Shown piece by piece: positions 5,330-19,029 of a stretch of DNA of 28,415 nucleotides. The stretch is from Verrucomicrobiota bacterium (GTDB lineage Bacteria; Verrucomicrobiota; Verrucomicrobiia; Limisphaerales; CAIMTB01), in NCBI GenBank assembly GCA_038328885.1, contig JBBQML010000001.1:1-28415 (forward strand), read 5' to 3'. The notes under the pieces were generated by a model, which made no database searches, had not been told where the DNA came from, and saw only the letters and a list, made by a program, of their open reading frames with translations. The translations under genes were made by a program, and so were the position numbers. How positions within the stretch are numbered: position 1 is the first letter of the stretch; each line of letters starts with the position of its first letter.

Positions 5330-5358
5330 TTGACACATGATGCCTGAACATCATGATG
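5330..5358 (+). promoter_or_regulatory. Sigma70-type promoter with overlapping inverted-repeat operator for vapBC
   Basis: TTGACA (5330-5335), 16 nt, CATGAT (5352-5357), 6 nt, GTG start. Inverted repeat CATGATG-N6-CATCATG (5336-5355) and perfect palindrome CATCATGATG (5349-5358). Confidence 0.75.
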
Positions 5359-5363
5359 CCCGC

Positions 5364-5609
5364 GTGCGAACCACACTGACGCTCGATCCGGATATCGCCG
5401 CCAAAGCGAAGCGGAGCGCAGCCAGGCTGCACAAACCCTTCAAGGAGGTGATCAATGCGGCACTTCGGGTGGGGCTTGACGCCATCCTCGCGCCGCCCGC
5501 CGCGAGGCCTTACCACACGAAGCCACGGCCGCTGGGGCTGCGCGGGGGGTTCAGTTACGACAATATCTCGGAACTGATCGCCGCCGCCGAGGGAGAGGAT
5601 CACCCGTGA
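5364..5609 (+). CDS. vapB: Type II antitoxin, VapB-like with an N-terminal ribbon-helix-helix-like region
   Basis: 81 aa from GTG: MRTTLTLDPDIAAKAKR...FKEVINAALRVGL. Its stop overlaps the start of a PIN-domain gene (GTGA, 5606-5609). Confidence 0.85.
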   Translation: MRTTLTLDPDIAAKAKRSAARLHKPFKEVINAALRVGLDAILAPPAARPYHTKPRPLGLRGGFSYDNISELIAAAEGEDHP

Positions 5610-6037
5610 TCCTGGTCGACGCGAATCTCCTGCTTTATGCGGAGGACAGCCTGTCGGACCACCACGAAGCCGCCCGGACCTGGTGGGATGCCCAACTCAG
5701 CGGTTCCGCCCCCGTGGCTCTCTGCTGGCCCGTGTTGAACGCTTTCATACGCATCGGCACCAACGCCCGACTGCATCAGCGGCCGCTCACGCTGAAGGAG
5801 GCTGCCGAGCGCGTGCAGAGCTGGTTCGAACAGTCTTGCGTCCTCATCATTCAACCGACCGAGGAGCACTGGAGCCTCTTCCAGCAGATGCTCCGCAGCG
5901 GGAATGCCGTGGGCAATCTCGTCTCGGACGCGCATCTCGCGGCGCTGGCGGTGGAGCACAACGCCGTCCTTCATTCCACCGACGCCGATTTCTCGCGTTT
6001 CCGCGGGCTCAAGTGGAAGAACCCGGTCGCGGGTTGA
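5606..6037 (+). CDS. vapC: PIN-domain toxin, VapC family
   Basis: 143 aa with PIN motifs MILVDANLLLYA...GNLVSDAHLAALAVEH...LHSTDADFSRF. Translationally coupled to the upstream small gene. Confidence 0.93.
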   Translation: MILVDANLLLYAEDSLSDHHEAARTWWDAQLSGSAPVALCWPVLNAFIRIGTNARLHQRPLTLKEAAERVQSWFEQSCVLIIQPTEEHWSLFQQMLRSGNAVGNLVSDAHLAALAVEHNAVLHSTDADFSRFRGLKWKNPVAG

Positions 6038-9000
6038 ACCGCTGGGAGCGCCTCGAAGCGGACTCCGCGGCACCCGGGCTCCGGACCAGGAGCCCCCGTT
6101 CCCCCGAGAGGCCGAGTTGTCCCTCGCTCTCCAGGCGCTGCACCTGGCGCTCGACCAATGTCCGGAGCGCGGCCCCGGCGGTTCTGAAGCCCAGCAAACG
6201 CGCCACGGCTCCCGGCAACTCCTGCCGCGCCACGCCATGCGCGGCCTCCACAAGCCCCAGAATGGCTTCCCGCACCTCCGCCGGCGGCACGAACTCCGGC
6301 TTGCGGAGTGTCGCTGACTCGAGGGCGTCGCGGCGTCGCAGTCGCACCGGTTGGCCCGGGATCGCGAGGAATCCGTCCTCACGCAGGCACTGGCGCGTGG
6401 CCAGCAGGGTCCGTACGCCTCGCGCCACCGCTTCCTGCACGCGTGCGCCCGCCCGCTGCAACCCCCACACGTCCCGCACCCGGGTCACGAGTTCGTCTTC
6501 ATGCACGGGTCCTTCGATCTCCACGATCCGGACGAGCACGTCCGCCATGTCCCGCGGCGTCAGGGCCTGGGGTTCGGTGCCGGGCGGCGGCGGGAAGCAC
6601 GCCAGCGCGTAGGGCTCCACCGGCAAGGCGGGCAAACCCACCTCGGGCGCGGGTTCGTCCTCGCGGTCGATTTCGCTGGTGGTCGTGGACACAGGACCGC
6701 CGCGGGGGCCAGGGCCCGGGGGCACTCCGGCCGGGGTGGGCACTCCGGCCGGGGTGGGCGCGCCGGCGGGACCGAGTCGGGCCCGGGCGGCCTCAATGGC
6801 GGCGACCACCCGGCGCAGTTGCTCCTCCGGCCGCTGGAACCAGTCCGTGCTCCAGATCCGGTGGATGCACCACCCGTGGTCTTCGAGGACGGCCTGCCGG
6901 AGTCGATCGCGGTCCCGGGCACTGCGGGAGGCGTGGTACGCGGCGCCGTCGCACTCGATCCCAAGGACGTAGTGCCCGGGGCGATCGGGATCGACGACGC
7001 CGAGGTCGATGAAGAACCCGGCGATGCCCACCTGGGGACGGACCTCGTAGCCCTGGGCCTCCACGGCTTGGCGGACGGCTTCCTCGAACGGGGATCCTTC
7101 CTCGCGGTCGCTGGGTACGGCCAGGCCGAGACGTCCGGTTTCAGCGAAGTGGAGGAACTGCTTGAGCGCCTGGACTCCGCGGCCCGAGGCGCGCGCCAGG
7201 TCGATGTCATCGGAGCGCAGGGAGGCGAAGACCACACAGCGCCGGCGGGCCCGGGAGATGAGCACATTCAGCCGGCGTTCCCCACCCTCGGCGCCGAGCG
7301 GGCCGAAATTCATCCGCAGGTAGCCGTCGGGATCGCGGCCGTACCCGATGGAGAGGAACACCACGTCACGCTCATCGCCCTGCACATTCTCGAGGTTCTT
7401 GACGAAGAACGGCTCTTCCGGGTGCCCGTTGAAAAACCCTTCGGTGTCGGGGTGCTCGCGCCGCAGCAGCTCCAGTTCGTCCAGGATCGCCTGCTGCTGG
7501 CGCAGCGAGAAGGCGGCGACGCCCAGCGACCGGTCGGGATGCGTGCGGGCGTGGGCGAGGACCGCCTGGCAGACGGCGCGGGCTTCGACGCGATTGGTGC
7601 CGGTGCCGCCGCTGTCGAAGACCCCGTTGGGGACCGGGTGCAAGGCCAACCCGAGGTCGTCGGAGGTCGCCTTGGGACTGGGCACGATGAACAACCGGTT
7701 CTCGTAGAACTCGTGGTTGGAGACGGCGATGAGTGAATGGTGCCGGCTCCGGTAGTGCCAGCGGAGCATGGCCGAGGGCAGGCCGCGGGCGGTGCAGAGC
7801 CCGAGGATGCTCTCGAGGTCCTGTACCTGGGCCGTGCCGACCCCGCTCCCGTCGGCGAGGTCGGCGTCGTGTTCGTCCCCCGTGATGCGCGCGAAGAAGC
7901 GGGTCGGCGGCAGTTGGCGGCTGTCTCCCACCACCACGATCTGGCGGCAGCGCGCCACCGCCCCCAGGGCATCCACGGGTTGGACCTGGCTGGCCTCGTC
8001 GACGACCAGCAGGTCGAAGGACACCGCGCCCGGCGCGAGGAACTGGGCGACGGAGAGCGGGCTCATCATGAAGACCGGCTTGATGGCTTGCACCACGGAG
8101 CCGGCGTCGATCAGCAGTTGGCGCACGGGCCGGTGGCCTCGCTTACGTTCGAGTTCGCTGTTCACGATGCCCACGGCGCCGACGCCCGCCGTCGGGTCGG
8201 GCAGGTGGGCATGGTGGGTGGCGAGCACCTGGAAACGCGCCAGGGTCAGCCGCTCACGATCAAGCCGGCGGAACTCCTCAACCAAACGGCTGTGGGTCTC
8301 GCCGTCGAAGCCAGCGAGGCCCGGGTTGCGACGGGCGAACTCGCGCAGGATGCTGCCGAAGCAGGTGCGTCGAAAGGCCGCCCGGGCCCCGACGGCCGGG
8401 ACGTCGCCGGTCGCCAGGGCGCTGACGAGCGGCTCGAGTCCGAGCTCGTGGGCCTGCTCGACGCGGGCGAAGTACTGGGTCCAGATCGACAGCGATCCGG
8501 GATCACGCCGCCACTCCGCCAGTCGGGAGTCGAGCTCGACCCAGTTCACCTGGGCGGCGTCGGGGACGCCGAAGGCGGCGGGGACATCGAGGGCCAGATC
8601 GGTGGTAAAGAGCCGCTGCAGCGGCCCCTGGGCGGCAGCCAGCATCTGCTCGAGCTGCTGGCCGGCGAGGCCGGCCTGGGCCGGGTCGGGCACCGCGGCG
8701 AACTGTTGGCGGAAGCCCCGATCGAGGCCCGCCGCCTGCTGCGCCTGGACCCAGGCCACGATTCCGTCGAGGCGGGCCCAGTCCGACTGCTCGCCGCGCC
8801 AGGCGGTGCCGAACGCCTCGGTGCCGAGGGCGCCGCCGGCCTGCACCCGGCGAAGGGCGGCCTGGCCAGCCAGCAGCGGGTCGAGGAGCGCAAGACGCGC
8901 CTCGTGGGCCCGGGGCGGATCGCCCTTGAGAACCCCGCGCCACGTCGCCATGGCACGGCGAAACCCGCCGTTGAGGAACCTCAGCCAGGAACGTCCGTGG

Positions 9001-10946
9001 GCGGCAACAGTCTGCCGGACCTCGGTGAAATCCTGCTCCCAGGCGGCGTCGATCACCTGGGAGCCGAGGGACTGGACCGCCTGGTGGAAACATTGCCCCG
9101 CAGTGACCAGGGCCTGCAGCGCGAGCAACTCATTGTCCCAGGCTGGGGAAGCGAGCGCCGTGCGGTCGACGGCGGGGGCGGCGGCGGCGTGTTGCGCCAC
9201 CACGATGAGCCGCTCGGCGGCGGCTCCGGTTTCCGGCGGCGACAGGGCGAGGGCCGCCGCGGCGGCTTGCGCGGAGGCCCGGGCGGCGGCGAGGCGTTGA
9301 GCGACCTCCACGACCCGCGCCACCAGCGGGGGCAGGTCGATCGGCAGAATCGTGGCCTGTCGAACCCCGCGCCAGGGATGGGCATCCGGCAGCCCGTGGT
9401 GACCGAGGCGCGCGCCGAGATCGGCGACCAGTTCCTCGCGGGCCGCCCGTTCCTCCGGAGTCCAGGTGGCGGCGAGCGGCAGTTCCAGCGTCGCGGCGGA
9501 GCCTCCGTCCTCATCGAGCGAGACCAACTCGCCGAGCACCCGGAACACCGTGAGGCCGGTGGGAACATGGACCGTGTGGAGGGCCTGGCAGTGCGCGTTG
9601 AGGGCCGTGCGACGGTGGTCCAGTTCGGCCATCACCCCGGAGAGCTCCCGGTCACGGGGCTTGCCGAGGCGCCAGGTACGGCCGAGTTCCGCCAGCACCG
9701 CGCGCTTGCTGGCCTTGTTGCTGTGCAACTCGAGGCAGATGTCGCCGAGGCCCTCCCGCTCCAGGCGTCGCTTGACCACCTCGAGGGCCGCCAGTTTCTC
9801 GGCGACGAACAGCACCCGCTTTCCCTCGAGCACGGCGGTGGCGATGAGGTTGGCGATGCTCTGGCTCTTGCCCGTGCCCGGCGGCCCCTGGAGCACGAGG
9901 CTTCGACCCTGGCGCACCATCTCAATGGCCCGCGTCTGGGAGCCATCGGCGTCCACGACGTGATCGAGACGTTCGACCGGGATCAGTTCATCAAGCTGGG
10001 CCGAGTCCGGAATCGGCGGATCGGCAGCGGGGAAGCCGTCGCCTAGCAGCGCCGACACAAACGGGTTTTCCAGCAGGGGCCGGTCGATCGGCCAGGTGGC
10101 CGGGTCGAGATCGCGGTACAGGAGGAACTTCGCGAAGGAAAAGCAGCCCAGGACGACTGCGTCCGGGAGGACTGCCCAGCCGGGGCGATCGGCCAGGGTG
10201 TCAGTGACGGCCTGGAAATAGGCGACGAGGTCGAGGGTTTCGGGATCCGGGAAGGCCGGGAGCGTCAGTCCGAAATCGCTCTCCAGCTTGGCGCGCAGGC
10301 TGAGGTTCTCCTCCACGTCCTCTTCCCGGGCGCGCAGGAGAAAGCGCTCCGCGGCGTTGCGGCGGGCGAGGCCGACCGGCACCAGGACCAGCGGGGCGAA
10401 ACGCCGAACCTCCGGGGCCCCTTCCTCGCACCATTGCAGTTGCCCGAGGGCGAGGTAGAGCACGTTGACGCCGGTTTCCTCGAGGCTGCTGCGGGCATCG
10501 CGCTCGAGATCGAGCAACCGGCGCTGCAATCCCTCCGGGGTCAGCGAGGTCTGCAGCCGGGCGTCGAGGTGCCGTTTCGCGGGTCCCTTGCCGGTCTCGT
10601 CGGCGTCATCGGGTGGCGGGAGTCCGATCTCCTCCTCCTCCTCGTCCGCCATCGTCCCGGGTCGGCCCGGGTCCGTTCCGGTCGGCGGGGAGTCGGGAGC
10701 AGCCAGGGTGCTGTCGGGGCCCTTTCCGGGCCTGGTCGTGGCGGAGGTGGTGCGACTGGCGAGGAAGCTCAGCGCCTTCCCTTCGGTCACCAGGAGGTGG
10801 AAGACTTCGGAGCCCCGCTCATCGACCACCGGGACCAGCCGTGCCAGCCGTGAACCCACCGGCACCGACACGAGTCGGTTGCGGTTGGATAGGTCGAGGA
10901 GTTCGCGGCGGGCGCGGTCCAGGCGGGCTCGGAGTTCGCTCGACAT
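6009..10946 (-). CDS. DUF4011 - SF1 (Upf1-like) helicase - restriction/Vsr-like endonuclease - DUF3320 multidomain protein (Hhe-like defence candidate)
   Basis: 1645 aa. N-terminal ARRELLDLSNRNRL...LYLALGQL.W...APLVLVPV (DUF4011-like). Helicase motifs QGPPGTGKSQ, VVDEASQ, GDSRQLPP, HYRS, ENVQGDERD, RLNVLISRAR. Nuclease segment SPFEEAV...FIDLGV...IECDGAAYH...RDRDRLRQAVLE..GW.IHRIWSTDW. C-terminal VEIEGPVHEDEL...WG (DUF3320-like). Confidence 0.88.
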   Translation of the reverse strand: MSSELRARLDRARRELLDLSNRNRLVSVPVGSRLARLVPVVDERGSEVFHLLVTEGKALSFLASRTTSATTRPGKGPDSTLAAPDSPPTGTDPGRPGTMADEEEEEIGLPPPDDADETGKGPAKRHLDARLQTSLTPEGLQRRLLDLERDARSSLEETGVNVLYLALGQLQWCEEGAPEVRRFAPLVLVPVGLARRNAAERFLLRAREEDVEENLSLRAKLESDFGLTLPAFPDPETLDLVAYFQAVTDTLADRPGWAVLPDAVVLGCFSFAKFLLYRDLDPATWPIDRPLLENPFVSALLGDGFPAADPPIPDSAQLDELIPVERLDHVVDADGSQTRAIEMVRQGRSLVLQGPPGTGKSQSIANLIATAVLEGKRVLFVAEKLAALEVVKRRLEREGLGDICLELHSNKASKRAVLAELGRTWRLGKPRDRELSGVMAELDHRRTALNAHCQALHTVHVPTGLTVFRVLGELVSLDEDGGSAATLELPLAATWTPEERAAREELVADLGARLGHHGLPDAHPWRGVRQATILPIDLPPLVARVVEVAQRLAAARASAQAAAAALALSPPETGAAAERLIVVAQHAAAAPAVDRTALASPAWDNELLALQALVTAGQCFHQAVQSLGSQVIDAAWEQDFTEVRQTVAAHGRSWLRFLNGGFRRAMATWRGVLKGDPPRAHEARLALLDPLLAGQAALRRVQAGGALGTEAFGTAWRGEQSDWARLDGIVAWVQAQQAAGLDRGFRQQFAAVPDPAQAGLAGQQLEQMLAAAQGPLQRLFTTDLALDVPAAFGVPDAAQVNWVELDSRLAEWRRDPGSLSIWTQYFARVEQAHELGLEPLVSALATGDVPAVGARAAFRRTCFGSILREFARRNPGLAGFDGETHSRLVEEFRRLDRERLTLARFQVLATHHAHLPDPTAGVGAVGIVNSELERKRGHRPVRQLLIDAGSVVQAIKPVFMMSPLSVAQFLAPGAVSFDLLVVDEASQVQPVDALGAVARCRQIVVVGDSRQLPPTRFFARITGDEHDADLADGSGVGTAQVQDLESILGLCTARGLPSAMLRWHYRSRHHSLIAVSNHEFYENRLFIVPSPKATSDDLGLALHPVPNGVFDSGGTGTNRVEARAVCQAVLAHARTHPDRSLGVAAFSLRQQQAILDELELLRREHPDTEGFFNGHPEEPFFVKNLENVQGDERDVVFLSIGYGRDPDGYLRMNFGPLGAEGGERRLNVLISRARRRCVVFASLRSDDIDLARASGRGVQALKQFLHFAETGRLGLAVPSDREEGSPFEEAVRQAVEAQGYEVRPQVGIAGFFIDLGVVDPDRPGHYVLGIECDGAAYHASRSARDRDRLRQAVLEDHGWCIHRIWSTDWFQRPEEQLRRVVAAIEAARARLGPAGAPTPAGVPTPAGVPPGPGPRGGPVSTTTSEIDREDEPAPEVGLPALPVEPYALACFPPPPGTEPQALTPRDMADVLVRIVEIEGPVHEDELVTRVRDVWGLQRAGARVQEAVARGVRTLLATRQCLREDGFLAIPGQPVRLRRRDALESATLRKPEFVPPAEVREAILGLVEAAHGVARQELPGAVARLLGFRTAGAALRTLVERQVQRLESEGQLGLSGERGLLVRSPGAAESASRRSQRFNPRPGSST

Positions 10947-13916: not shown

Positions 13917-15056
13917 CTAGAAGCGCCTCGAGATCGAGGCGTTGACCACGAAGTCGGCGAAGGCCGCGTCGCCGTGCCGATAGACGCCGGTGGCGGCGGT
14001 TTGCTGCTTGTCCGGCACGCTTTGCTCACGGTTCCGGTACACCGCGACGGGGGTCGTCACCGCGAACATCCAACCGTTGCGCGACAGGCTCACACCCGGC
14101 TCGATGCCGATCGAAAGGCCGGGACGGCGGAAGCCCTCGCTGCCGCCGACGGCATCGTTGACCGGCACGCCGTCGATGCGACCGCCGAGGGACAGCGCCA
14201 AACCCCATTTGGGCAGGACCATGTAGTCCACTCCCACGCGGCCCATGTAAGTGTCCGCGATCGACATGATCGCCTCGTAGGGGCTTCCGCGGTAGGTGCG
14301 CACCCCATTCTTCTCCTCCGGCGTGACCGTGTAGGACCCGTTCGCGTAGAGATTCAGCCCCTTCCCGAGTCCGTAGTAGCCGTAGAGCTCCATCACCATG
14401 CCCCAGCCGCCGTCGCCGAGTTGGATCGACTGATCCACGGTGCGATCCCGCGCCACGATCCGCCCCGTGGGGGCGTCGAATGCCTGGAAGGTGTCCTTGG
14501 CGTCCTTCTCCCCGGTTGGCATGTCCACGCCAAGCATTACGAGCAGGTTGCCCTTGGGTGCGTTCACCGGATCCAGGATCCACGCGTTGCCCGTGAGGCG
14601 TATGTCCCCCAGGCCCGCCGACTGGGTGTGGTACCGCTGCAGGATGGTCCGCGAGGTGTCGTTCGACCGGACCACCTGGGAGCGGTCATTGATCGAGAAA
14701 GGGATGGTCAGAGTCGCGCTGTAACGGGGCGTGAACGCGTAGGTCAGGCTGACGTCCAGGAAGTTCGAGTTATTGATGACCTCGCTGCCCTCCTTCTGAC
14801 GCTCCGGGTGCTCCTGGTCGCCGACGAAGTGGCGGTCCGAATGGAGCCACCGGTAGCCGACGGCAGCCTGGAAGCCCTCCGTCGTCTGGAGTTCGATCCC
14901 TGGCAAGTGGAAGAAGGTTCCGCTTCGACCGGCCACGCAGCCCTGTCCGAAGGACGAGGGCAGGTACAGCGCCGCCGCCAGCATTGCGGCCAATCCCAGG
15001 CCGAGCCGCCGGTTGCGGTGCGCGGATTGTGGTTGGGAGATAGTTTTGAAAATCAT
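13917..15056 (-). CDS. Putative outer-membrane beta-barrel transporter/channel (MetA-pathway-like porin superfamily)
   Basis: 379 aa. Signal peptide ending ...SSFG-QGCVAG, GLGDIRL and TG...QLGDGG motifs, alternating beta-strand patterns, terminal ...VNASISRRF. Confidence 0.7.
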   Translation of the reverse strand: MIFKTISQPQSAHRNRRLGLGLAAMLAAALYLPSSFGQGCVAGRSGTFFHLPGIELQTTEGFQAAVGYRWLHSDRHFVGDQEHPERQKEGSEVINNSNFLDVSLTYAFTPRYSATLTIPFSINDRSQVVRSNDTSRTILQRYHTQSAGLGDIRLTGNAWILDPVNAPKGNLLVMLGVDMPTGEKDAKDTFQAFDAPTGRIVARDRTVDQSIQLGDGGWGMVMELYGYYGLGKGLNLYANGSYTVTPEEKNGVRTYRGSPYEAIMSIADTYMGRVGVDYMVLPKWGLALSLGGRIDGVPVNDAVGGSEGFRRPGLSIGIEPGVSLSRNGWMFAVTTPVAVYRNREQSVPDKQQTAATGVYRHGDAAFADFVVNASISRRF

Positions 15057-15389
15057 GCGGCAAATAAGTGGATGAAGTAGTGGTGCGGCGGGAGGTTTTA
15101 GAGGGTCCTCCCGGCGCGGCGAAGGGCCTTGGGGTGAACGGCTGGCAATCCGTGGCGAAGTGGAGTGCGGCGGGGGCGGAATGCGGAACGGGCCGTTGAG
15201 CGGCGTCCGGCGAAGGCGACTTGGTGGAGGAAGGTGTGGGTGTCGTGCCCGAGATCCTACCGAATGGTAGCCACGCCGAGTGGCATGGAGGGGATTCAGT
15301 GGCGCAACCGGGGGCAGGCATCCTGTGGTGGGCAGTCAACGAAAGATGGATAGTGCTCCGGCTTTGGTCGAATCTTGCGACGTCTTGGA

Positions 15390-15968
15390 ATGAGTGCTGG
15401 CCACCCCCAAACCCCGTCGGACGGGTCGTCCCTGAGTGCCGAGCGCATCCTGGACGCCCTGGAAAAGCTGTCCGCGGAACTCGGCCGGCAGGGCGTGATG
15501 GGTGAGGCCTGCCTCTTCGGTGGCACGGTCATGGTGCTCGCATTCACGGCACGTCTGACGACGAAGGACGTCGACGCGCTCTTCCAACCCGCCGCGGCTG
15601 TGCGCGAAGCCGCGCGTCGCATCGCCGACGAAGCGCATCTCCCGGCCGATTGGCTCAATGACGGCGTCAAAGGCTTCGTCTCGGCCCGCCACGAAACGAC
15701 CTTGAGAAACCTGCCGCAGTTCCCGAACCTCCGTTTGACGATGCCGGTGCCGGAGTACCTGCTCGCCATGAAGTGCATGGCCGCGCGGTTGGGCGGCATC
15801 ACCGGGGAGCAGTCCGACGTGGCGGACATCGTCTTTCTCATCCGGCGGCTCCAACTCTGTTCGGCACCTGAGGTGCTCGATCTGGTTGCCCTCTACTATC
15901 CGGCTCACCGTATTCCGGTGAAGACGCAGTACCTGGTCGAGGGATTGTTTGAGGAAGGCAGGATATGA
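15390..15968 (+). CDS. Nucleotidyltransferase, DUF6036/AbiEii/MenT-like
   Basis: 192 aa from ATG 15390. Motifs LFGGTVM...ARLTTKDVDA, WLNDGVKGF, YLLAMKCMAAR, DVADI match the GG...TxDxD...K...DxxD pattern of this NTase superfamily. Confidence 0.75.
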   Translation: MSAGHPQTPSDGSSLSAERILDALEKLSAELGRQGVMGEACLFGGTVMVLAFTARLTTKDVDALFQPAAAVREAARRIADEAHLPADWLNDGVKGFVSARHETTLRNLPQFPNLRLTMPVPEYLLAMKCMAARLGGITGEQSDVADIVFLIRRLQLCSAPEVLDLVALYYPAHRIPVKTQYLVEGLFEEGRI

Positions 15969-16345
15969 GGCCCAAGTCGCTTGCCGAGGTTGCGCAACTG
16001 GCTGGGGACGGGGACTCCTTCGACCGCTGCCTGGCCAATTTCCTCGACGGATTCTACGCCACGCCGGCGGGCGCGGCGCTGCAGGAATCCCCAGCGCTCC
16101 TTGGTCCCTGGATGGGCGACGTGGGTCGGGTGCAGGACGCCTACCTGGCGGCGACCGCGGAGGAACTGGCCCGGCGTTTCGCCCTGCCGCTGCCGGTCTG
16201 GACGTGCGCCGCCGAACGGGGACTGCACCGACCGTGGTTCGCCTCTCCGCTGGGGTCGTTGCGTGCGGTGCTCCTGCTGGAAAGCCCGGCAGGTTTCCGC
16301 GCGCGCAACCTGTTCGTCAGCGAGAACGCCCTCTCCCGCGCTTGA
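15965..16345 (+). CDS. Small uncharacterised partner of the NTase (putative antitoxin)
   Basis: 126 aa. ATGA overlap with the NTase stop. C-terminal PWF...LLLESPAGFRARNLFVSENALSRA looks like a conserved motif. No HTH recognised. Confidence 0.7.
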   Translation: MRPKSLAEVAQLAGDGDSFDRCLANFLDGFYATPAGAALQESPALLGPWMGDVGRVQDAYLAATAEELARRFALPLPVWTCAAERGLHRPWFASPLGSLRAVLLLESPAGFRARNLFVSENALSRA

Positions 16346-16448
16346 GCTGGGGTCAGATCTAAATTGTTGACAAAGCCGATGCTTTCGAGCGCGTCCGGGA
16401 GCGGCACGGGTTGGCGTTCGTGCCAAGGAGGTGGGTGGTCTGGCCCGC

Positions 16449-16477
16449 TTGCGGTGCCGCTGCCGGTGACGCAATCT
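16449..16477 (+). promoter_or_regulatory. Putative leaderless sigma70-type promoter
   Basis: TTGCGG (16449-16454), 17 nt, CAATCT (16472-16477), 6 nt, GTG at 16484. Confidence 0.55.
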
Positions 16478-16483
16478 GGCGGG

Positions 16484-17302
16484 GTGTTTGCGCGTTCGAT
16501 CCTGCTCCTGTTCGCCCTCGGCGCGTCGCCGTGGGCGCTCGGTGGTGGGTTGCTGCCGGTGGGGAGCGAGGCGGTGGACGTGCCCGCCCTGCTTCAGCGG
16601 GTGGTGGCGCGAGCCCGGGCCGTGGCGACGGAGACGAACGGGGGTTTCTACGTGTTCCGCAAGCTCGCGGTCACCGACACGCTGGACGCCAGCGGCGAGA
16701 TCAAGCGGACCAGGGAGAAGGTCTACGAGGTCACCGTACGGCAGGGGATGACCCAGAACCGGTTGGTGGCGGTCGACGGGCGCCGCCTGGCGGGTGCGGA
16801 GAGCGACGCGCTCAGCGAGAAGGAGCGTCGCTGGCGGGAGACGTACTCGAGCCGGCGAGGTGAGGAAGGGGGGTCGCGGACCGAGCGGATGGACCAGATC
16901 GTGAACGAGAAGCTGTTCGCGCGGTTCGAGTTCACTGCGGTAGGGCGGGAGGTGCTGCGCGGGCGCCCTTGCATTGCCCTCGATTTCCGTCCCAGGTCGG
17001 GAGACCTCCCGGACGAGCGGTTGATGGATCGGGTGCTGAACCTGTTCCGGGGCCGGATCTGGATCGACGAGGAGGAGGATGAGTTGGCGCGCGCCGAAAT
17101 CGCGACGGAGGGGGCGATGCGGGTCTGGGGGGGCATGTTGGGTAGCCTGGAGCGGTTCCGATTGCATGTAGATCGCGAGCGAAGCCCCTACGGGGTCTGG
17201 TTCAACCGCCACGCCGAAATCGAGATCCGGGCGCGTAAACTTCTTACCTCCTTTGGTATGCGCGTCCGTGAGGTGGGCAGCGAATTCCGGCCTGCGACCT
17301 AA
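16484..17302 (+). CDS. Exported hypothetical protein, possibly MucB/RseB or LolA-like fold
   Basis: 272 aa from GTG 16484, which gives a clean signal peptide (MFARSILLLFALGASPWALG). Beta-rich body with FEFTAVGREVLRGRPCIALDFRP and GRIWIDEEEDELARAE. Confidence 0.7.
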   Translation: MFARSILLLFALGASPWALGGGLLPVGSEAVDVPALLQRVVARARAVATETNGGFYVFRKLAVTDTLDASGEIKRTREKVYEVTVRQGMTQNRLVAVDGRRLAGAESDALSEKERRWRETYSSRRGEEGGSRTERMDQIVNEKLFARFEFTAVGREVLRGRPCIALDFRPRSGDLPDERLMDRVLNLFRGRIWIDEEEDELARAEIATEGAMRVWGGMLGSLERFRLHVDRERSPYGVWFNRHAEIEIRARKLLTSFGMRVREVGSEFRPAT

Positions 17303-17513
17303 GCCCGTTGAAAAAGTCTGGCAGCAGCCGCGAACAACGCAAAGGAACCCCGAAAAGCCAGTTAATGCGCCGTGTCACCACGGCGGCTACGGGACAAGGG
17401 GGCTTTTTGAACAGACTGCCAGTGACAACGCAGAGGAGCCCCCAAAAGCCAGTTAATGCGCCGTGTTACCACGGCGGCTACGGGACAAGGGGGCTTTTCG
17501 AACAGGCTGCTAG
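17302..17513. mobile_element. Non-autonomous IS-end-like element (MITE-like) containing a 91-bp tandem duplication
   Basis: Two near-identical copies with a 91-bp period (17334-17420 and 17425-17511). The left end AGCCCGTTGAAAAAGTC is an imperfect inverted repeat (13/17) of the right end GGCTTTTCGAACAGGCT. The element ends in CTAG. No transposase is present. Confidence 0.55.
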
Positions 17514-17590
17514 CCGCAAGCCGCAAGCCGCGCGGCCCCGTCGACAGCGGCCGGTCCCCGGCGCCTTTCCAAGTCCGGGCCCCGGTCGAC

Positions 17591-17619
17591 TCGACGCGCA
17601 GGGGGGAGGACGGCAAACT
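17591..17619 (+). promoter_or_regulatory. Putative leaderless promoter for the ROK gene
   Basis: TCGACG, 17 nt, CAAACT, 6 nt, ATG at 17626. No Shine-Dalgarno sequence between the -10 box and the start. Confidence 0.5.
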
Positions 17620-17625
17620 TCCCGC

Positions 17626-19029
17626 ATGGACGCGCACCTTTCGTTTCTCAAGCCACCACGACTTGCTGCCGTGCTCGATCCGGGGTTTCGTCCGGCAGCG
17701 CTGGCGGTTCAGGATTTTGAGGCTGCGGCAGAGGCTTCCGGCCGTCCCCTCACACTGGGCATCGCCATCGAACAGGCGGACGGCTCGACGTACGCCTTCC
17801 GGCGGAAGTTCCTGCCGCTGGACCACCCGCAAGCGGGGGCGAACGCCTTTTTCCTCGAGCGCCTCGCGAAGTTCCTGCTCTGGTCACGCGGGGGCTGGCG
17901 GCTCCGGGTGGCCGGGCCTGCCACGCTGGTGGACACCCTCGCGCGCCACTACCGCGAGACCGAGGAGGGGCGCTTTGACGCCGAGATGATGGGTGGGCGG
18001 GTCTACGAGCGGCCGTTCACGGTGGAGGCGGTCGCCGAACTGCCACCCGAGCGGGCCGCGACCCAAAGCCTGGGCCGGCACTGGGACGGGTGCCGGATTG
18101 GCTTCGACCTGGGCGGAAGCGATCGGAAAGTCTCGGCCGTCCGGGATGGTGAGCCAGTATTCAGCGAGGAGACGGTCTGGGATCCGATCAAGCAGGCGGA
18201 CCCGCAGTATCATTTCGACGGCATCATGGATTCGTTGCGCAAGGCGGCGGCCCATCTGCCAAGGGTCGATGCGATCGGGGGTAGCGCGGCGGGCGTTTAT
18301 GTGAGCAACCGGCCCAAGGTCGCCTCGCTCTTCCGCTCTGTACCCCCGGCGCAGTTCGAGGCGCGCATCAAGAACCTGTTCTTCGAGCTCAAGGCGGCCT
18401 GGGGCGAAGTGCCGTTCGAGGTGGCCAACGATGGAGAGGTGACCGCTTTGGCCGGGTCGATGTCGCTGGGCAGGAACGCCGTCCTCGGCATCGCCATGGG
18501 CACCAGCACCGCGGCGGGTTATGTGACGCCGGACGGCAACATCACTTCCTGGCTCAACGAACTGGCGTTTGTTCCGGTGGATTATCGTCCGGAGGGCCCG
18601 CAGTGCGAGTGGAGCAGGGACCGCGGGGTCGGGTCCCAGTATTTCTCCCAGCAGGCGCTCGGTCGCCTGGTCCCGGCCTCTGGCATCGAGGTCGATCCGA
18701 CGCTGCCCTTGCCAGAAAAGCTCAAGCTTGTGCAGCGGCTGATGGCGGGGGGTGACCTGCGGGCTCGACGCATTTACGAGACGATCGGCACCTACCTCGG
18801 GTACGGACTGGCGCACATCGCGGGATTCTATGATTGCGAGCACGTGCTGGTCCTGGGACGCGTCATGACGGGCGACGGAGGCACGGTGATTCTGGAGGGT
18901 GCCCGGACGGTGCTGGACGCGGAGTTTCCGGAGTTGGCGAAACGGGTCGCGTTCCACACCCCGGACGAGACCTCGAAGCGCCACGGCCAGGCGGTCGCTG
19001 CGGCGAGTCTCCCGCTCCTGCGGGAGTGA
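17626..19029 (+). CDS. ROK-family protein (sugar kinase-like) with an N-terminal extension
   Basis: 467 aa. IGFDLGGSDRK (phosphate-1), VANDGEVTALAG, GIAMGTSTAAGY, NELAF, C-terminal GQAVAAASL. Confidence 0.82.
   Translation: MDAHLSFLKPPRLAAVLDPGFRPAALAVQDFEAAAEASGRPLTLGIAIEQADGSTYAFRRKFLPLDHPQAGANAFFLERLAKFLLWSRGGWRLRVAGPATLVDTLARHYRETEEGRFDAEMMGGRVYERPFTVEAVAELPPERAATQSLGRHWDGCRIGFDLGGSDRKVSAVRDGEPVFSEETVWDPIKQADPQYHFDGIMDSLRKAAAHLPRVDAIGGSAAGVYVSNRPKVASLFRSVPPAQFEARIKNLFFELKAAWGEVPFEVANDGEVTALAGSMSLGRNAVLGIAMGTSTAAGYVTPDGNITSWLNELAFVPVDYRPEGPQCEWSRDRGVGSQYFSQQALGRLVPASGIEVDPTLPLPEKLKLVQRLMAGGDLRARRIYETIGTYLGYGLAHIAGFYDCEHVLVLGRVMTGDGGTVILEGARTVLDAEFPELAKRVAFHTPDETSKRHGQAVAAASLPLLRE

Follow-up and report, generated by a model that had tools for sequence, protein, structure and literature searches.

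A putative mobile toxin-antidote cassette of a MenT/AbiE-like nucleotidyltransferase and an unnamed helical partner in Verrucomicrobiota

The locus and its two genes

The window, by which we mean the whole stretch of 28,415 nucleotides that was analysed, carries at positions 15390-16345 two genes on the + strand. Open reading frames and their translations assign 192 amino acids to the product of the first, gene A (15390-15968; protein P0001), and 126 amino acids to that of the second, gene B (15965-16345; protein P0002). The features are as follows.

15390..15968, + strand: gene A, a 192-aa minimal nucleotidyltransferase (NTase) and putative toxin/effector, a DUF6036-type relative of MenT1/AbiEii (from ORF, homologues and profile matches)
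15519..15524, + strand: codons G44-G45, the GG of NTase motif I, invariant in the set of 16 homologues
15561..15575, + strand: codons T58-K-D60-V-D62, the catalytic DxD and the Thr at the position of MenT1 T39, aligned to MenT1 FTRDVD
15765..15773, + strand: codons A126-M127-K128, aligned to MenT1 LIAMK, with K128 equivalent to MenT1 K137 (motif III)
15816..15827, + strand: codons D143-V-A-D146, aligned to MenT1 QDRSD, with D146 equivalent to MenT1 D152
15965..15968, + strand: ATGA overlap of A and B, in which the ATG of B (15965-15967) lies over the TGA of A (15966-15968)
15965..16345, + strand: gene B, a 126-aa mostly helical protein of an unnamed family, putative antidote or regulator of A (from ORF, homologues and the AF2 model)
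16295..16315, + strand: codons F111-R112-A-R114-N115-L-F117, encoding FRxRNxF, the polar motif of B with the highest conservation in the alignments

The ATGA overlap suggests that A and B may be translationally coupled. An earlier, sequence-only reading had described two ATGA-coupled genes with these boundaries, and both the coordinates and the overlap are confirmed. The ATATGAG junction is unchanged in two relatives that are about 77% identical (L027 and L028), and overlaps of 4 bp between A and B recur across many related loci. The ATG start of gene A fits homologues that begin with MSAG, MSAD, or MSTQ; an alternative TTG start lies at 15375. Each gene is present in a single copy in the host assembly, which comprises 5.64 Mb in 1055 contigs and is 81% complete.

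Are these genuine genes? There are 2732 homologue matches for A and 2068 for B in public data, and the closest homologues of both are 75-92% identical, constant in length, and found mostly in Verrucomicrobia MAGs. All of these closest homologues bear the label 'hypothetical'. Compared with L027 and L028, at an identity of about 77% for A and 69% for B, dN/dS was 0.07-0.09 per gene in five of six pairwise comparisons, and the sixth gave no ratio because dS was saturated. Both genes are under purifying selection. The thousands of homologues, the low dN/dS, and the presence of B beside A in most related loci (see below) make A and B more than chance reading frames. A scan around the cassette found no sigma-70 promoter, and terminator-like matches in an intrinsic terminator scan lay inside gene A or upstream of the cassette, at chance level. 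The candidate operator upstream of the cassette amounts to one weak inverted repeat at 15085-15117. The cassette does not stand out from its flanks in GC content.

To which family does A belong? The Pfam matches of P0001 are all sub-threshold: DUF2204 with an E value of 0.047, and DUF6036 (PF19502) with an E value of 0.065 and 13.5 bits, against a gathering cut-off of 23.6. P0001 has no match to AbiEii (PF08843) at E up to 1, nor to any model of NCBIfam or PADLOC (2023). Homologues that are 44-49% identical to it do pass the DUF6036 cut-off (L005 with 33.5 bits, L003 with 27.6 bits), and over 29 members of the A family, DUF6036 is matched by 22 (best 3e-8), DUF2204 by 12, and PF08843 by seven (best 1.4e-6). 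A profile built from these 29 sequences recovered MenT1 (8an4_A) from the PDB with an E value of 1.3e-4, the sole match below E 0.1.

The motifs GG...RxTxDVD...AMK...DxxD, which had been noticed in the first gene from its sequence, are indeed present in A as G44-G45, R55, T58-K-D60-V-D62, A126-M127-K128, and D143-V-A-D146. Among 16 homologues (34-79% identity) they do not vary, and 25 of the 29 sequences of the wider set retain them intact; K128, D143, and D146 are invariant in all 29, and R133, invariant in the 16-sequence set, is kept in 26 of 29. Motif I of the pol-beta NTase fold, hGG...(S/T)xDxD, is represented by G44-G45 together with T58-K-D60-V-D62 and aligns with GG...FTRDVD of MenT1. 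The motif III pattern of AbiEii/MenT proteins, K...R...DxxD, is also found, with K128, R133, D143, and D146 aligning to AMKLLARDDDRRPQDRSD of 8an4. In the printed alignments, T58, D60, K128, and D146 correspond to T39, D41, K137, and D152 of MenT1, the residues that were substituted by mutagenesis (PMC10435456). T39 is the site of an auto-phosphorylation that is induced by MenA1 (PMC11375011).

In our reading, A is a divergent member, of the DUF6036 type, of the MenT/AbiEii superfamily, and its catalytic set is complete. The initial description of A as an AbiEii/MenT NTase stands as far as kinship goes, on the strength of the MenT1 profile match and the PF08843 matches within the family. It does not stand for AbiEii proper: the best family is DUF6036, and since P0001 does not match PF08843 and only seven of the 29 family members do, A is a relative within the superfamily and not a PF08843 member by the Pfam criterion.

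The AF2 model of A has a pLDDT of 84.9, lower around the catalytic loop, and its N-terminal half does not form a canonical NTase core. VIA-align placed MenT1 (8an4_A) at rank 1 of 48,161 chains (Z 5.6, rmsd 3.3, 67 residues aligned), a match that is limited to residues 118-189 in the C-terminal half of A and tied with unrelated helical bundles. Foldseek against the PDB, which had been proposed as a check of both proteins, returned no match for the model of A or for that of B at E up to 0.001.

The B protein belongs to no named family: P0002 has no match in Pfam (E up to 1), NCBIfam, or PADLOC, Pfam detects no DNA-binding domain in it, and a B profile run against PDB sequences recovered neither MenA1 nor AbiEi. 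This agrees with the earlier statement that the partner resembles neither AbiEi nor MenA, and its assignment to a characterised antitoxin family, which had been named as grounds for rejecting the idea, was not found in Pfam, NCBIfam, PADLOC, or the PDB. The AF2 model of B is mostly helical (pLDDT 97.5, pTM 0.91). In a wide VIA-align search its best Z was 4.2, among unrelated helical proteins; the fold is thus unassigned, which does not prove that it is new. Among PDB sequences the B profile matched only the N-terminus of ribosomal protein eS19, locally over about 44 residues (E 0.0018). Because this match found no backing in the fold search, it is taken as a local helix-P-x-W resemblance. A feature search of the ESM Atlas limited to named clusters gave nothing usable (best score 0.85, unnamed).

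Conservation in B is concentrated on a surface of its C-terminal half, which comprises P77, W79, P90, F92, P108, and F111-R-x-R-N-x-F117 and is a candidate interface. Within the last motif, R112, R114, N115, and F117 are invariant in alignment A2, and across 73 diverse members F111 is invariant and R114 and F117 are nearly so.

Pairing, mobility, and modular forms

Among related loci drawn from a sample of 301 genomes of the phylum, B adjoins A in 21 of 24. The sample contains A in 22 genomes and B in 27, with both in 20, so that B accompanies A in 20 of 22; the co-occurrence that had been put forward as a check is thus borne out. In 19 of the 21 paired loci A precedes B, often with a 4-bp overlap, and in the other two (L007 and L008) B precedes A and carries an N-terminal extension. 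The extension in L007 scores 22.2 bits for HTH_3, just below the cut-off of 23, and that in L008 has no Pfam match. Two further loci with HTH-B or wHTH-B proteins are also ordered B then A, so an N-terminally extended B lay upstream of A in all four loci checked. On a Brevibacillus plasmid, a bare B lies ahead of A, behind another small ORF and an integrase. The order NTase (the putative toxin) then partner, as first proposed, holds for the window and for most paired loci and is inverted in the relatives with an extended B that were checked.

The pair moves as a unit. The presence of A is patchy within genera, and the window, L027 (on a 1.37-Mb contig), and L028 contain the intact cassette with no flanking gene in common. 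Homologues are found on plasmids of Mycobacterium, Rhodococcus, Mycolicibacterium, and Brevibacillus, with ParDE or an integrase beside some of them. A conserved adjacent pair with a patchy distribution is what is generally expected of a toxin-antitoxin (TA) system.

Further TA genes occur in the surroundings. A ParE-like gene lies near the cassette in L028, ParDE is near the A/B homologue of the Mycobacterium intracellulare plasmid pFLAC0070_2, and ORFs that on visual inspection of their sequence encode a PIN domain (VapC-like) are found nearby in L034 and L035. In the window, vapC (5606-6037) and a gene for a PDC-S37/Hhe-like helicase-nuclease (6009-10946) are present; this gene and vapBC lie 4.4-10 kb upstream of A/B, with metabolic and envelope genes in between. 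Such neighbours are anecdotal and amount to no statistical enrichment, and a defence island around the pair in the window is suggestive only.

How widespread is the B domain, and with what is it combined? A profile search of 1.84 billion cluster representatives (E up to 0.001) found 2569 clusters at 50% identity, which makes the family a large one. Of 151 representatives, 99 consist of the bare domain, as in the window; the domain is extended at its N-terminus by 45 aa or more in 31 (about a fifth) and at its C-terminus by 30 aa or more in 22, and five include an A domain in the same chain. The N-terminal extensions that were scanned contain an XRE-type HTH (P0322, with 44 bits for HTH_3, and P0368, P0316, and P0270) or a winged HTH (P0333). 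In the ESM Atlas, a search by structure recovered the B fold (TM 0.76-0.90 by query) from clusters of several types: HTH_3 is fused to it in some, a ribbon-helix-helix (RHH) domain of the NikA/TacA1 type is fused to it in one, and a further one contains DUF2204 (about 352 aa, 159 members, mostly Actinomycetota). The description of the partner as HTH-less is accurate for P0002 and does not extend to the family, because relatives carry XRE-HTH, winged HTH, or RHH domains. Judged by these layouts, B appears to behave like the neutralising module of modular antitoxins.

Single-chain fusions occur in both orders, A-B in P0255 and P0391, and B-A in P0343. Plasmid pFLAC0070_2 encodes a B-A protein of 359 aa (WP_007172361.1), in which B occupies residues 60-178 and A residues 191-358, with the catalytic motifs intact. 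A search for longer forms of B gave P0391 alone, a result shaped by the length window and by crowding from long proteins that is not to be read as a count of fusions. These fusions are taken to show that the A and B domains act together. They also indicate that A and B can work within one polypeptide, which the classical model of a labile antitoxin does not predict.

Prediction of the A/B complex, another of the checks proposed at the outset, gave a score of 0.57 against 0.00 for the best control. The mark for this score is reached by 58 of 80 solved complexes and by two of 110 mismatched pairs, and at values of 0.60 or below it is reached by just seven of the 80 solved complexes and by both of the passing mismatches, so the value of 0.57 gives weak support to a predicted complex of A with B. 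Contact agreement between the runs was at least 71%, and the partner pLDDT at least 89.

Which partner is the poison?

The manner in which the pair decays bears on this question. Five of the 27 genomes with B have no intact A: in three of them (G150, G284, and G231) remnants of A lie directly next to an intact B, and in two (G177 and G198) an intact B stands alone. In two representative proteins (P0261 and P0365), a complete or largely complete B domain is joined to an A that is truncated. Intact A-like genes that lack B occur only in L025 and L026. HG replaces GG in these two paralogues and in no other sequence compared, and the DxD is absent; their context is conserved and non-mobile, with a membrane protein and a SulP-type transporter alongside. 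The A gene of G229 is interrupted by an in-frame stop and is located at the end of a contig. In L014, L015, and L029, a catalytic Asp has been lost though B is still adjacent. Within this small sample, B is kept without A, as orphan antitoxins are, and no competent A occurs without B.

This asymmetry, together with the DNA-binding domains found on B and the kinship of A to proven toxins, favours A as the toxin and B as its antidote. It argues against the polarity of MNT-HEPN systems and against mutually dependent subunits, and it is supportive and not conclusive, given a small sample of related genomes. The patchy distribution, the changing flanks, the orphan copies of B, and the dead A without B all fit what would be expected of a toxin-antidote pair. 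We regard it as probable that the two genes make up a mobile cassette of toxin and antidote, of the MenT/AbiE kind.

How would such a cassette work? By analogy, A in its free state would draw on NTPs to append nucleotides to an essential RNA, with the 3' ends of tRNA as the likeliest target, and such an extension would block aminoacylation and bring translation to a stop. MenT1, MenT3, and MenT4 extend tRNA 3' ends (PMC7450476, PMC10435456). As MenT1 is not toxic in E. coli (PMC7450476), toxicity may be host-dependent. B, translated by coupling right after A, would bind A and hold it inactive. It could do so by blocking the active site of A or, alternatively, by inducing auto-phosphorylation of T58, as MenA1 does on T39 of MenT1 (PMC11375011). 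B would then represent a new neutralising domain, joined elsewhere to XRE-HTH, winged-HTH, or RHH domains, which is the classical antitoxin layout, or to the NTase. A role in phage defence may also be supposed.

Several observations count against the toxin-antidote reading. P0001 stays below the Pfam cut-offs, the model of its N-terminal half is not a canonical NTase core, and Foldseek came back empty; the immediate neighbours of the pair are metabolic or envelope genes, and neither protein has a PADLOC model. The loss of a catalytic Asp beside B in three loci and the lack of MenT1 toxicity in E. coli point in the same direction. The B protein of the window has no DNA-binding domain, which leaves autoregulation unaccounted for, and stable fusions of A and B would be equally expected of an enzyme that has a regulatory or specificity domain. 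Such an enzyme would have two parts, with B as the substrate-recognition or activating subunit of a benign NTase that acts, for example, on a small molecule, an antibiotic, or a nucleic acid, and the versions with an HTH would couple regulation to the enzyme. It would account for single-chain fusions in both orders, including the 159-member cluster, for strong purifying selection on both genes, and for the failure of defence and TA models to match either protein; the weakly supported complex would also suit it. It is nevertheless an unlikely explanation. Intact B is found as an orphan beside a decayed A and is missing only where A is catalytically dead, an asymmetry that is expected of a poison and its antidote and not of interdependent subunits. 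The distribution is patchy and non-syntenic and includes plasmids, VapBC, ParDE, or ParE are frequent neighbours, and the closest kin of A are proven toxins.

Could the roles be reversed? In mntA-hepT, the NTase gene comes first, the gene for a small helical partner comes second, and the stop and start codons overlap. A/B has the same arrangement, and if it functioned like MntA-HepT (a type VII TA system), A would be an antitoxin that nucleotidylylates a toxic B; the conserved Arg/Asn motif of B, FRxRNxF, could be seen in this light. In MntA-HepT the toxin is a HEPN RNase, whereas neither the MNT nor the HEPN signature is found in A/B, and the comparative evidence indicates the opposite polarity. 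The HEPN motif Rx4-6H is absent from the sequence and alignments of B, which has no HEPN match in Pfam, and a HEPN identity for B was rejected on these two counts. In place of the MNT pattern GSxxRG...SDxD, A has GGTVMVLAF...TKDVD, which aligns to the toxin MenT1, and it has no match to NTP_transf_2. An unopposed toxin should not be tolerated, yet intact B occurs without A in five of 27 genomes, and the HTH and RHH domains are found on B. A reversal of roles is accordingly very improbable. There is still less probability that A/B has decayed or been domesticated into a remnant that no longer functions in the genome of the window. Some relatives have indeed lost catalytic residues or parts of A, but the frames in the window are intact, all catalytic residues and the ATGA coupling are kept, and dN/dS is low.

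Relation to known systems

MenT/AbiEii NTases are well-studied toxins, encountered both in the persistence biology of M. tuberculosis and in abortive phage infection. The antitoxins known for them, MenA1, COG4861, and COG5340, each work in a different way. An upstream antitoxin of the COG5340, COG4861, or MenA1-like class is not what is found at this locus, where B lies downstream and matches no family.

Among the closest parallels to a toxin-antidote reading of A/B is MenT1-MenA1 (Rv0078A-Rv0078B) of Mycobacterium tuberculosis. MenT1 (196 aa) and A (192 aa) are both small single-domain NTases that share the motifs GG...(F/T)T(R/K)DVD and AMK...R...DxxD, and neither MenA1 nor B has a DNA-binding domain. 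However, MenA1 is a two-helix peptide of 68 aa encoded upstream, whereas B is a globular domain of 126 aa encoded downstream; MenA1 has no sequence match to B, and MenT1 has been assigned to DUF1814, whereas A scores best with DUF6036. In AbiEi-AbiEii, MenA3-MenT3, and MenA4-MenT4, the toxin belongs to the same NTase superfamily as A, with motifs I and III. AbiEii and MenT3 are proteins of about 300 aa with an additional C-terminal motif IV, in contrast to the 192 aa of A. AbiEi, MenA3, and MenA4 are COG5340 proteins with a winged HTH and a C-terminal domain, and B has no AbiEi match in Pfam at E up to 1. The gene order of AbiEi-AbiEii is opposite to that of A/B in the window, although its layout, with a DNA-binding and a neutralising domain encoded upstream of the NTase, is the one seen in the extended relatives of B. 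A DNA-binding domain on the antitoxin, a general feature of TA systems, is likewise absent from P0002 and present in some relatives of B. The fused TA defence protein CapRel(SJ46) offers another comparison, since the B domain and the NTase also form one chain in some lineages, much as an effector would be combined with an antitoxin-like domain that autoinhibits it. In CapRel(SJ46) the enzyme is a toxSAS and not an NTase; in the window, A and B are two separate genes.

In the literature searched, DUF6036/PF19502 is not mentioned, DUF2204 is mentioned in one unrelated paper, and the pairing of A with B is not described. The toxin class is already known; what appears to be undescribed is the partner domain, together with the modular forms it takes and its connection to DUF6036/DUF2204. 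The A/B locus suggests one more partner family, a very large one, attached to the DUF6036/DUF2204 branch of small NTases, which is also present on mycobacterial plasmids. If the toxin-antidote reading is confirmed, DUF6036 and DUF2204 would gain a function and the TA repertoire a new neutralising domain, thousands of 'hypothetical' proteins would become annotatable, and the compact pair of 192 and 126 aa would be available to probe the generality of antitoxin-induced auto-phosphorylation. New antitoxin families are expected by TA specialists, and A/B is a solid, testable lead of this kind.

A broader proposal, which we hold only tentatively, is that B founds an unrecognised antitoxin or regulatory domain that controls a large DUF6036/DUF2204 branch of MenT-like toxins. 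This branch would span Verrucomicrobiota, Actinomycetota, Pseudomonadota, and Bacillota, and B, with a fold that has no solved relative, would serve it as a free-standing protein, in combination with a DNA-binding domain, or in one chain with the enzyme, where it might act as an autoinhibitory sensor. Were the fused B released by a phage or stress signal, the pair would amount to an AbiE-like module for abortive infection, controlled by a new logic.

DUF6036 (PF19502) and DUF2204 (PF09970), the Pfam families that A and its relatives match best, with P0001 below both cut-offs, are purely descriptive NTase families with no assigned function or partner. In RefSeq, plasmid homologues of A are named 'DUF6036 family nucleotidyltransferase'.

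Resemblances and variant forms of the partner protein

Is the putative antidote B related to a known protein? The B family profile repeatedly matches the N-terminal helix-loop of eS19, a ribosomal protein of eukaryotes, at a best E of 0.0018, and in the window's own B, P0002, the eS19-like stretch covers residues about 45-88, with the motif DAYLAA...L....lP.W. The resemblance between B and eS19 is probably local, because a fold search with B gave no support for it.

Many B proteins, among them those of the related loci L010-L013, L015, and others, carry a very basic C-terminal extension of about 45 aa. The genes with this extension encode 170-183 aa, and its pattern is GRPxV...KKxKAxxRxxxYRxRxRxL. 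The tail could be a nucleic-acid-binding or coiled-coil element that takes the place of the N-terminal HTH. In one representative of the family, P0303 (384 aa), an N-terminal B domain (residues 2-127) is joined to a hydrolase of the HAD family, which scores 54.8 bits with PF13419; this apparent fusion may be real or an artefact of gene calling.

Paralogues of A lacking a partner

Two genomes encode A-like paralogues:
L025, 2974-3522, minus strand: A-like paralogue, HG for GG, no DxD
L026, 2995-3567, plus strand: A-like paralogue, HG for GG, no DxD

Both retain AMK...DxxD despite the change of GG to HG and the loss of DxD, and their motifs predict that they are catalytically dead. The B partner is absent at both loci, and their shared neighbourhood contains a protein that spans the membrane several times along with a transporter of the SulP type. 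These paralogues may represent a non-toxic side branch of the A family that has undergone domestication.

Genes around the cassette

The following features of the window surround the A/B cassette:
5337-6037, plus strand: vapBC-like pair, two overlapping ORFs
5337-5609, plus strand: putative antitoxin ORF, 90 aa, overlapping the vapC ORF; its sole match is faint and BrnA-like
5606-6037, plus strand: VapC PIN toxin ORF, 143 aa (TIGR00028, 130 bits)
6009-10946, minus strand: 1645-aa protein, DUF4011 + Upf1-like helicase + REase_MTES_1575 + DUF3320
13917-15056, minus strand: 379-aa protein, cassette neighbour
16364-17302, plus strand: 312-aa protein, cassette neighbour
17308-19029, plus strand: 573-aa protein, cassette neighbour

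The helicase gene is separated from the cassette, which is downstream of it, by 4.4 kb. Its product, a candidate single-gene defence system, matches the PADLOC model PDC-S37 over the entire length with 1811 bits, and Hhe at 723 bits. The end of this gene is overlapped by the 3' end of vapC on the opposite strand; the 90-aa ORF is likely to encode the antitoxin of VapC.

The three immediate neighbours had no Pfam match at E up to 1e-4. Since the N-terminus of the 379-aa protein resembles a signal peptide, it may be an envelope protein.

In the relative L027, a 1.37-Mb contig, the cassette is followed by other genes:
L027, 7323-10696: MksF-domain (kleisin-like) gene, plus two genes lacking annotation

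These may constitute a Wadjet/Mks-type condensin system.
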